Part shown: positions 26,520 to 26,927 of the stretch, in pieces
How positions within the stretch are numbered: the first letter of the stretch is position 1
How the letters are laid out: each line of letters begins with the position of its first letter
Assembly: GCA_943354465.1 (NCBI GenBank)
Contig: CALRCC010000001.1
Coordinates: 1-37,208, forward strand
DNA length: 37,208 nt
Source of the DNA: Candidatus Ryanbacteria bacterium
GTDB taxonomy: Bacteria; Patescibacteriota; Minisyncoccia; Ryanbacterales; GWA2-47-10b
Direction: 5' to 3'
The notes under the pieces: model-generated
Database searches by the model: none
Told to the model about the DNA's origin: nothing
What the model saw: only the letters and a program-made list of their open reading frames with translations
Translations under genes and position numbers: made by a program

Positions 26520-26927
26520 ATGGGTAATAAATATATCATCTTTCTTTTATTTGGAGCGCTTTTGATTGGCAGTGGCGTTGTCTATGAGAAGTTTTACCGA
26601 CCAAAAGATGTTGGCGCTGTCGTGTGGGATGGTGTGACGGTGTTTGAGCGCAACATGGTCTCGCTTGAAGGGAAATGGCGCTTTGATCCAGATATTATTG
26701 AGACAAAGCGTGGGGCAAAAGTCATTTTACATATTTATAATGCTGATACCTATGATCATGGCATAGGTATTGATAATTTTGCTGTCAACGAGCGTATTTT
26801 CCCAAAGAGTACGACAACCGTGACATTTATCGCTTCAGAAAAAGGGGAGTTTCAATTTTACTGCACTGTCGCTTGTGGCGAAGGCCATTATGATCAAGTA
26901 GGCAAGCTCATCGTCCACGAGGAGTAG
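26520..26927 (+). CDS. membrane-anchored cupredoxin with CuA-like ligand spacing
   Basis: N-terminal anchor IIFLLFGALLIGSGVV. Ligand pattern H80-x34-C115-x3-C119-x3-H123-x2-Q126 (YDHGIGID ... FYCTVACGEGHYDQ). Confidence 0.8.
   Translation: MGNKYIIFLLFGALLIGSGVVYEKFYRPKDVGAVVWDGVTVFERNMVSLEGKWRFDPDIIETKRGAKVILHIYNADTYDHGIGIDNFAVNERIFPKSTTTVTFIASEKGEFQFYCTVACGEGHYDQVGKLIVHEE

Follow-up and report, generated by a model that had tools for sequence, protein, structure and literature searches.

The stretch of DNA analyzed here (37,208 nt of contig CALRCC010000001.1, hereafter called the window) stems from a Candidatus Ryanbacteria bacterium and carries, at positions 26520 to 26927 on the forward strand, a gene for a membrane-anchored cupredoxin whose ligand loop, judged by alignment, is homologous to the loops of CuA centers and resembles them in more than spacing. 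The gene adjoins copA, encoding a Cu(I)-exporting P1B-ATPase, and belongs to a large family in which the axial position of the loop toggles between Met and Gln. We consider it moderately likely that the protein holds an outward-facing, binuclear, redox-tuned copper center that is loaded by CopA and acts in copper handling in the cell envelope. Domain type and family were already known, the protein being annotated as a "cupredoxin domain-containing protein." The most informative fact is the strict linkage to copA, copZ, and other copper genes, which was absent from an earlier, sequence-only reading of this DNA.

The open reading frame starts with ATG and encodes 135 amino acids. Counting along its translation gave H80, C115, C119, H123, and Q126, i.e., H-x34-C-x3-C-x3-H-x2-Q, so that the CuA-like spacing with Gln in place of Met, as proposed in the sequence-only reading, was borne out. 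The His80 codon (cat, 26757 to 26759, +) lies outside the ligand loop C115-T-V-A-C119-G-E-G-H123-Y-D-Q126, which spans positions 26862 to 26897 (+) from the C115 codon (tgc, 26862 to 26864) to the Q126 codon (caa, 26895 to 26897). In a phmmer search, the loop CTVACGEGHYDQ aligned column for column with CNQYCGLGHQNM of the Thermus thermophilus ba3 CuA domain (E value of 2e-9), matching C149 to M160 one to one; Q126 falls on Met160, and every other ligand coincides. The best sequence matches in the PDB were this CuA domain and engineered variants of it (E values of 1e-10 to 3e-9), followed by NosZ, and a family profile lifted the CuA-domain matches in the PDB to an E value of 5e-25.

The ligands are also conserved. 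All five positions, Gln included, are invariant in 8/8 close relatives, which come from metagenome-assembled genomes of Patescibacteria/Candidatus Ryanbacteria, and a family alignment of 119 sequences shows no change at C115 or C119 and a conservation of at least 90% at H80 and H123; the sequence-only reading had named a failure of such conservation as a possible refutation. The ratio of nonsynonymous to synonymous substitutions (dN/dS) of the cupredoxin gene is ~0.09 to 0.10 in comparison with two public loci, L053 and L052. Since the loop aligns column for column with CuA loops, the ligands are conserved, and dN/dS is ~0.1, the ligand pattern is not a product of chance. The same data bear on the idea that the gene once encoded subunit II of a cytochrome oxidase that has since been lost and is now decaying without a function. 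Such a remnant would fit the missing COX1 match in the genome and the nearest relatives of solved structure, which are subunit II domains of oxidases. However, the gene is under strong purifying selection with invariant ligands, its synteny with copper genes is kept across 36 to 88% identity, and a family member occurs in 63/401 sampled Patescibacteria genomes (a manual cross-tabulation, as are all phylum-wide counts below, over genomes that are in part related and hence not independent). We rejected the pseudogene or remnant reading on the grounds of dN/dS and conservation and regard it as extremely improbable.

Profile searches placed the protein in PF13473 (Cupredoxin_1), which passed its cutoff of 27 with 36.9 bits over residues 54 to 132; this is the only Pfam match of the protein, and the genome has no second PF13473 match. 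Among the NCBIfam models, TIGR02866 (CoxB) remained below its cutoff (23.9 versus 147.7 bits), as did the NosZ models (47 versus 625 bits), whose match is limited to the C-terminal ~80 residues, and the nitrosocyanin model gave a subthreshold partial match. Structure modeling yielded a confident AlphaFold2 (AF2) model with a mean predicted local distance difference test (pLDDT) value of 94.8, showing one N-terminal helix followed by an eight-stranded sandwich of the cupredoxin type. Foldseek returned NosZ CuA domains and ba3 subunit II as top matches (E value of 1e-10). In an exhaustive structural scan (VIA), ba3 subunit II was the best full-length match, with 125 residues including the helix aligned, and Z scores to CuA domains were 12.7 to 13.9. 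The single N-terminal anchor described previously was found again as a transmembrane segment at residues 4 to 26 (26529 to 26597, +), visible as a helix in the AF2 model and as a hydrophobic window in a script-based scan. The contrast with subunit II that had been drawn from it does not hold, as the subunit II of ba3 also has one helix.

To survey the axial residue in homologs, as had been suggested, the family was collected by an exhaustive HMMER search (4,769 representatives at E of ≤1e-3 and 1,123 at E of ≤1e-10), and loops were read from the best 150 of the 4,769 representatives plus the 8 close relatives, a sample of 158 proteins that is biased towards the query. It contained 137 canonical C-x3-C-x3-H-x2-X loops, some proteins having more than one, with Met at the axial position in 104, Gln in 29, His in 2, and Ile in 2. 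A His exactly 35 residues before the first Cys was present in 25/26 Gln-type and 79/86 Met-type relatives. In a tree of 140 rows, at least 10 Met/Gln changes and at least 8 changes of loop type (CuA, CuA with insert, and T1, i.e., type 1) were counted, and the window protein was placed in a well-supported Gln clade. Gln in the window protein is thus real, as the sequence-only reading had stated, but the site is less of an oddity than it had appeared: according to these alignments, Gln stands in for Met naturally and repeatedly in this family and is a clade trait. A similar revision applies to V117 between the two cysteines. It is indeed Val rather than the Glu expected for CuA, and Val is the usual residue in this family, whose consensus is CSVxCG. 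In CuA centers, the residue between the cysteines ligates via its backbone carbonyl, and its side chain is free to vary. Gln-type and Met-type loops furthermore differ in their second sphere, the Gln-type loops having Tyr/Phe after the second His and Tyr two residues before H80. A near-identical CuA-type loop, FYCSVACGDGHYDQ, was seen in a cupredoxin from a copper island of the Candidate Phyla Radiation (CPR). In an Atlas search, similar clusters of small "subunit II-like" cupredoxins were found in Methanobacteriota, Nanobdellota, Bacillota, and Acidobacteriota.

The remaining variation lies in the loop itself. Thirty of the proteins lack the canonical spacing, and most of these keep C-x3-C-G-x-G and (R)GH[FY]D[MQ] with 8 to 14 extra residues in between. 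Such an insert-type loop (CG.G-VIDGKPRG-HYDQ) was observed at L052:8001-8429 (+), and similar ones in a deeper clade, in P0016, P0022, P0079, and others; in AF2 models the insert forms a confident β-hairpin excursion and leaves the remainder unchanged. The insert may have arisen by recombination or by gain and loss on several occasions. In several Patescibacteria members, nested in the same family, the first Cys is lost and the loop is of the T1 type (C-x4-H-x4-M/Q, with the pattern CS[VI]xxH....[MQ]). These loops are of interest for an alternative that the sequence-only reading had already raised, namely a mononuclear, stellacyanin-like T1 site in which H80, C119, H123, and the axial Q126 bind one copper, C115 is spare or structural, and the protein is a simple one-electron carrier. 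The spacing is compatible with it: natural T1 loops span a range that includes C119-x3-H123-x2-Q126, Gln is a known T1 axial ligand, and T1-type loops ending in Gln (C-x4-H-x4-Q, a stellacyanin-type ligand set) do occur in the family (L044:7094-7507, -; L045:2384-2884, -; P0139). Yet C115 is invariant in the 119 aligned sequences, the entire loop is homologous to CuA loops and not to T1 loops, and the T1-like members, in which the first Cys is gone, have another kind of loop. The retention of both cysteines hence seems to serve a purpose, the second invariant Cys and the homology to CuA loops speaking for two metals, and we regard a T1 site in the window protein as unlikely. In nature, redox cupredoxins use Met or Gln as their axial ligand, and Gln is a poor ligand for a Cu(I) chaperone. 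The axial position of the family mainly alternates between these two residues, and a single scaffold has switched between CuA and T1 loops; this is how a redox-tuned copper site behaves. Engineered loop swaps likewise turn CuA sites into T1 sites and vice versa on this scaffold (PMC7480511).

The genetic neighborhood provides a further line of evidence. Divergent from the cupredoxin gene lies copA (24046 to 26445, -; TIGR01511 with 591 bits; PF00122, PF00702, and PF00403), whose product carries an N-terminal HMA domain. It is followed by copZ (23813 to 24031, -), an open reading frame for a 72-amino-acid HMA copper chaperone with the motif MHCGSC and similarity to the HMA domain of CopA. Further along, at 21538 to 23577 (+), a CcdA-like membrane protein is fused to two His-rich, Ig-like (YtkA-like) ectodomains; its translation contains the PCxxP-like motifs LPCTLP and GCPNP, and its Pfam matches are weak throughout (YtkA, E value of 0.043). 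We compared this arrangement with 4 public loci (L052 to L055) and with 20 loci from sampled Patescibacteria genomes, 18 of which contained a called cupredoxin open reading frame. copA adjoins the cupredoxin gene in 5/5 loci at an identity of at least 51% (the window and the four public loci, the latter at 51 to 86%). It also directly follows the cupredoxin gene in L032, where the cupredoxin is 36% identical and has an insert-type Gln loop. The adjacency survives changes in order and strand, L055 having DoxX, cupredoxin, and copA on one strand. copZ is present in L053, L054, and L055 as well, and the CcdA-like fusion is co-located in L052, L053, L055, and L044 (~2.3 kb from the cupredoxin gene of L044). 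Across the sampled phylum, CopA is found in 55/63 cupredoxin-positive versus 186/338 cupredoxin-negative genomes. As the gene always adjoins copA in the loci of at least 51% identity, the cupredoxin is probably involved, at the cell surface, in the handling or use of copper that has been exported.

CopA itself carries a feature that goes along with the axial Gln. Its extracytoplasmic MA-MB loop (residues 115 to 146; 26008 to 26103, -; HMFNLQHGHALC...) contains H115, H121, H123, C126, and C141. By sequence comparison, the H-x5-H-x-H arrangement is common to the CopA proteins beside Gln-type cupredoxins (L052 to L055 and L032) and absent from 7 other CPR CopA proteins. The loop may be a site of copper exit or hand-off, or it may reflect mere shared ancestry.

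A tethered cupredoxin beside copA could also act as a Cu(I) chaperone like CupA, passing copper to CopA for export or receiving it outside, with no redox role. CupA of Streptococcus pneumoniae has the same layout of a single N-terminal helix and a cupredoxin domain, its gene lies beside copA, the two proteins share a Pfam family (PMC5552934), and CupA is needed for copper resistance (PMC7558416). The structures match with a Z score of 12.6 and a root mean square deviation of 2.4 Å over 88 residues. The resemblance ends at the ligands, as the C...C-x-M-x-M motif of CupA (PMC5552934) is absent from the window protein. Moreover, CopA in the window has an ordinary HMA domain (PF00403) at its N terminus and is accompanied by a separate CopZ, whereas the CopA partner of CupA has a cupredoxin-type N-terminal domain (PMC7558416). 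The 56 PDB sequences matched at E of ≤10 in a single-sequence search did not include CupA, nor did the best 60 of 199 PDB matches of the family profile; it did appear in the structural scan. The two His and the Gln are not a ligand set of a Cu(I) chaperone. Finally, 106 of 122 anchored family members show a net-charge bias of the N-in/C-out type, which across the family favors a domain outside the cytoplasm. Taken together, a CupA-like chaperone is rather improbable.

The absence of respiratory genes noted for the window extends to the entire genome, an assembly of 520 kb in 51 contigs that is 91% complete. No match was found in it for COX1 (PF00115), COX2, cytochrome bd, PCuAC, Cu-oxidase_2/3 (multicopper oxidase [MCO]/NirK), or plastocyanin-type PF00127, and none for Sco, the Sco1 signal being a subthreshold cross-match on a peroxiredoxin. 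As for a catalytic partner, PF00115 had no match in this 91%-complete genome, and a propeller domain is lacking in the cupredoxin; no separate search was made for the NosZ propeller. These results bear on the possibility that the protein is an FtrB/EfeO-type cupredoxin oxidizing Fe(II) or another metal for uptake, or that it passes electrons to a nitrite reductase or oxidase whose gene lies elsewhere. FtrB (Z score of 12.8) and the cupredoxin domain of EfeO (Z score of 11.2) are structural neighbors, one Atlas cluster of CPR relatives is automatically named "EfeO-type," and electron transfer from cupredoxin to NirK has been proposed for CPR bacteria (PMC5581439, PMC12931201). In addition, true MCO/NirK proteins are enriched in cupredoxin-positive genomes (13/63 versus 11/338), while COX1 occurs in 3/63 versus 13/338. 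In the genome studied here, however, MCO/NirK, COX1, and cytochrome bd found no match, no FTR1/EfeU-type permease lies beside the gene, and 48 of the 63 cupredoxin-positive genomes have neither MCO/NirK nor COX1. We therefore consider this role quite improbable for the window protein; NirK donation or Fe(II) oxidation is plausible for other clades (PMC5581439).

In the reading that we favor, the single ligand loop together with His80 would build a CuA-type, thiolate-bridged two-copper center in which Gln126 replaces the weak axial Met. Copper would leave the cytoplasm through CopZ and then the neighboring CopA pump, and it may be handed on by the His-rich outer loop of CopA, by the His-rich ectodomains of the CcdA-like fusion, or by both. 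The CcdA-like channel may keep C115 and C119 reduced. Once loaded, the center could serve as a one-electron redox and copper-holding module of an envelope copper-homeostasis system. The harder Gln ligand would probably lower the potential relative to that of Met-type relatives, an effect that engineered variants are said to show and for which our literature search brought no confirmation.

Several observations weigh against this reading. The fold alone has no power to separate CuA domains from CupA, nitrosocyanin, Cupredoxin_1 of Bacillus anthracis, FtrB, and EfeO; as all of these score alike (Z scores of 11 to 15), the CuA assignment rests on the ligand loop and not on the fold, and it is by homology of this loop that a binuclear site is suggested. 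In the profile search, which the sequence-only reading had proposed for COX2 and other cupredoxin families, PF13473 matched; COX2 (PF00116) gave no match at E of ≤0.1 with the cupredoxin and likewise none in the genome. The proteins of L052 and P0007, 71 to 75% identical to the window protein, carry an insert between the second Cys and the second His, and since inserts of 8 to 14 residues occur in L052 and in the deeper clade, exact CuA spacing is not strictly required. For the window protein taken alone, the positive-inside count is ambiguous, with 2 positive charges (K/R plus the N terminus) before the helix and 3 after it. Only roughly one in three of the wider Met-type Patescibacteria loci has copA within 7 kb, and an all-against-all clustering of the neighbors of Met-type members gave no common context beyond CopA and other copper genes. 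Lastly, no electron donor or acceptor for the cupredoxin was identified.

A bolder version of this reading, which we hold to be doubtful, is that a Gln-ligated, low-potential CuA protein is the sole copper-protein client found for a self-contained extracytoplasmic assembly line in bacteria in which no terminal oxidase was found. This line would lead from CopZ to CopA with its His-rich exit loop and on to the thiol relay, a CcdA-like protein with His-rich copper domains fused to it. If so, besides being a cofactor of oxidases and N2O reductases, CuA would also exist as a free-standing redox module of the cell surface, widespread in CPR bacteria, DPANN, and other anaerobes, and used, for example, for oxidizing exported Cu(I) or for electron exchange with a host cell or the surroundings. 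Evolution would then have switched a single scaffold, time and again, between CuA, insert-CuA, and T1 sites, with either Met or Gln.

In textbooks, CuA belongs to respiration and N2O reduction, and its axial Met is treated as fixed; the large, uncharacterized family described here keeps the CuA loop and swaps Met and Gln repeatedly. If the site is binuclear, its members would be natural counterparts of the axial-ligand and loop-swap variants engineered for redox tuning, and they would raise the question of what a CuA center does without an enzyme to feed. They would also provide a concrete client for the unexplained islands of CopA, CcdA-like proteins, and His-rich domains in ultra-small bacteria. 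If the protein is a mere copper-binding buffer, it would be an ordinary accessory of a copper-resistance cluster. In our literature search, no paper was found on stand-alone CuA cupredoxins beside copA in CPR bacteria, and we found no description of a Gln-type CuA loop that occurs in nature and recurs as the trait of a clade, of strict copA linkage, or of interconversion of CuA, T1, and insert loops within one family.

The divergent genes copA and cupredoxin are separated by 74 bp (26446 to 26519), probably a common promoter region, with a block conserved in L052 and L053 (TATGCTATA.TAA...TATTA.CT.TATCTTATCA). A consensus promoter scan of this intergenic region called none, its sole palindrome is an AT-rich 9-mer, and no gene for a copper regulator was noticed in the window. 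A small hairpin immediately ahead of the start codon of the cupredoxin gene was considered as a conserved element and rejected, one compensatory pair in 3 sequences being too weak. On the other side, a gene for a DoxX/MauE-family membrane protein (26908 to 27324, -; PF07681 with 24.2 bits at a cutoff of 23.6, and PF07291 with 25.8 bits) is convergent with the cupredoxin gene and overlaps its 3' end by 20 nt. A DoxX-like gene adjoins the cupredoxin gene in L054 and L055 and is absent at that position in L052 and L053, where two small genes for proteins of 171 and 94 to 96 amino acids, one with a signal-like N terminus, were observed instead (L052:8508-9304 and L053:8482-9284, +). The longest contigs with close DoxX-like homologs are equal in base pairs to those with cupredoxin homologs, including one of 2,010 bp. 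A predicted complex of the cupredoxin with the DoxX-like neighbor gave ipSAE values of 0.09 and 0.01 (mark, 0.32), from which nothing follows on binding either way.

Within the island, an open reading frame for a 58-amino-acid, two-helix membrane peptide (23583 to 23759, +) lies 3' of the CcdA-like fusion gene and recurs with 100% identity in L053. An N-terminally anchored DUF3105 protein is encoded at 19712 to 20368 (+), ~1.2 kb upstream of the copper island and between a Cas4-like nuclease gene and bacA. The rest of the window contains housekeeping genes and an F-type ATP synthase operon. Two further arrangements of Met-type CuA-loop cupredoxins were seen elsewhere. At L049:2678-7347 (+), in genome G298 of the same class as the window genome, CopA, a 542-amino-acid MCO, and such a cupredoxin are encoded in a row. 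At L042:6153-7292 (+), in genome G301, the cupredoxin is preceded, within one fused protein, by a DsbA-like thioredoxin domain (CPFC), and the fusion adjoins a CopA of 1,289 amino acids whose frame also gives cupredoxin-like matches. In lake and freshwater sequencing runs, only small shares turned up. Contigs from RNA libraries cover parts of copA at an identity of at least 99% and none covers the cupredoxin gene; no conclusion on expression or habitat was drawn.

Among known systems, the nearest small stand-alone cupredoxin structures are an uncharacterized Cupredoxin_1 protein of B. anthracis (PDB 4HCF), nitrosocyanin (1IBY), and FtrB (8VUK), with Z scores of 12.8 to 15.2. The alignments with these end before the ligand loop or differ in it (profile positions 48 to 121 for 4HCF and 53 to 120 for nitrosocyanin), and nitrosocyanin has a mononuclear red site. 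The CuA domain of NosZ shares the ligand loop, in a one-to-one alignment, and gives top Foldseek and partial NCBIfam matches; in contrast to NosZ, the window protein has no propeller/CuZ domain, and it matches only the last ~80 residues of the NosZ models. CupA (PDB 4F2E) shares the Pfam family, the single N-terminal anchor, the cupredoxin fold, and the position of its gene beside copA. CupA itself is a copper-resistance protein with a binuclear thiolate copper site, to which the window site can be likened from its sequence. However, its ligands are Cys/Cys/Met/Met with no His or Gln, it faces the cytoplasm, and its CopA partner has a cupredoxin-type domain, whereas the window encodes an HMA-type CopA plus CopZ and a domain that is probably outside.

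The closest counterpart is the subunit II CuA protein of the ba3 oxidase of T. thermophilus (PDB 2CUA and 1EHK chain B), which likewise has one N-terminal helix and a cupredoxin domain and in which the His, the C-x3-C-x3-H segment, and the axial position align column for column with the window protein. In contrast to it, the window protein has Gln for Met160, is shorter (135 versus 168 amino acids), stays below the Pfam COX2 threshold, and is encoded beside copA rather than oxidase genes, subunit I not being found in the genome. A Met160Gln variant of T. thermophilus CuA has reportedly been published, which our literature search did not confirm; to our knowledge, no natural Gln-type CuA has been characterized. 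In engineered T. thermophilus CuA chimeras and in purple azurin and amicyanin, one loop decides between CuA and T1, and the axial residue tunes the potential (PMC7480511, PMC6115626). Those variants are laboratory constructs; both kinds of change are seen naturally in the family described here.

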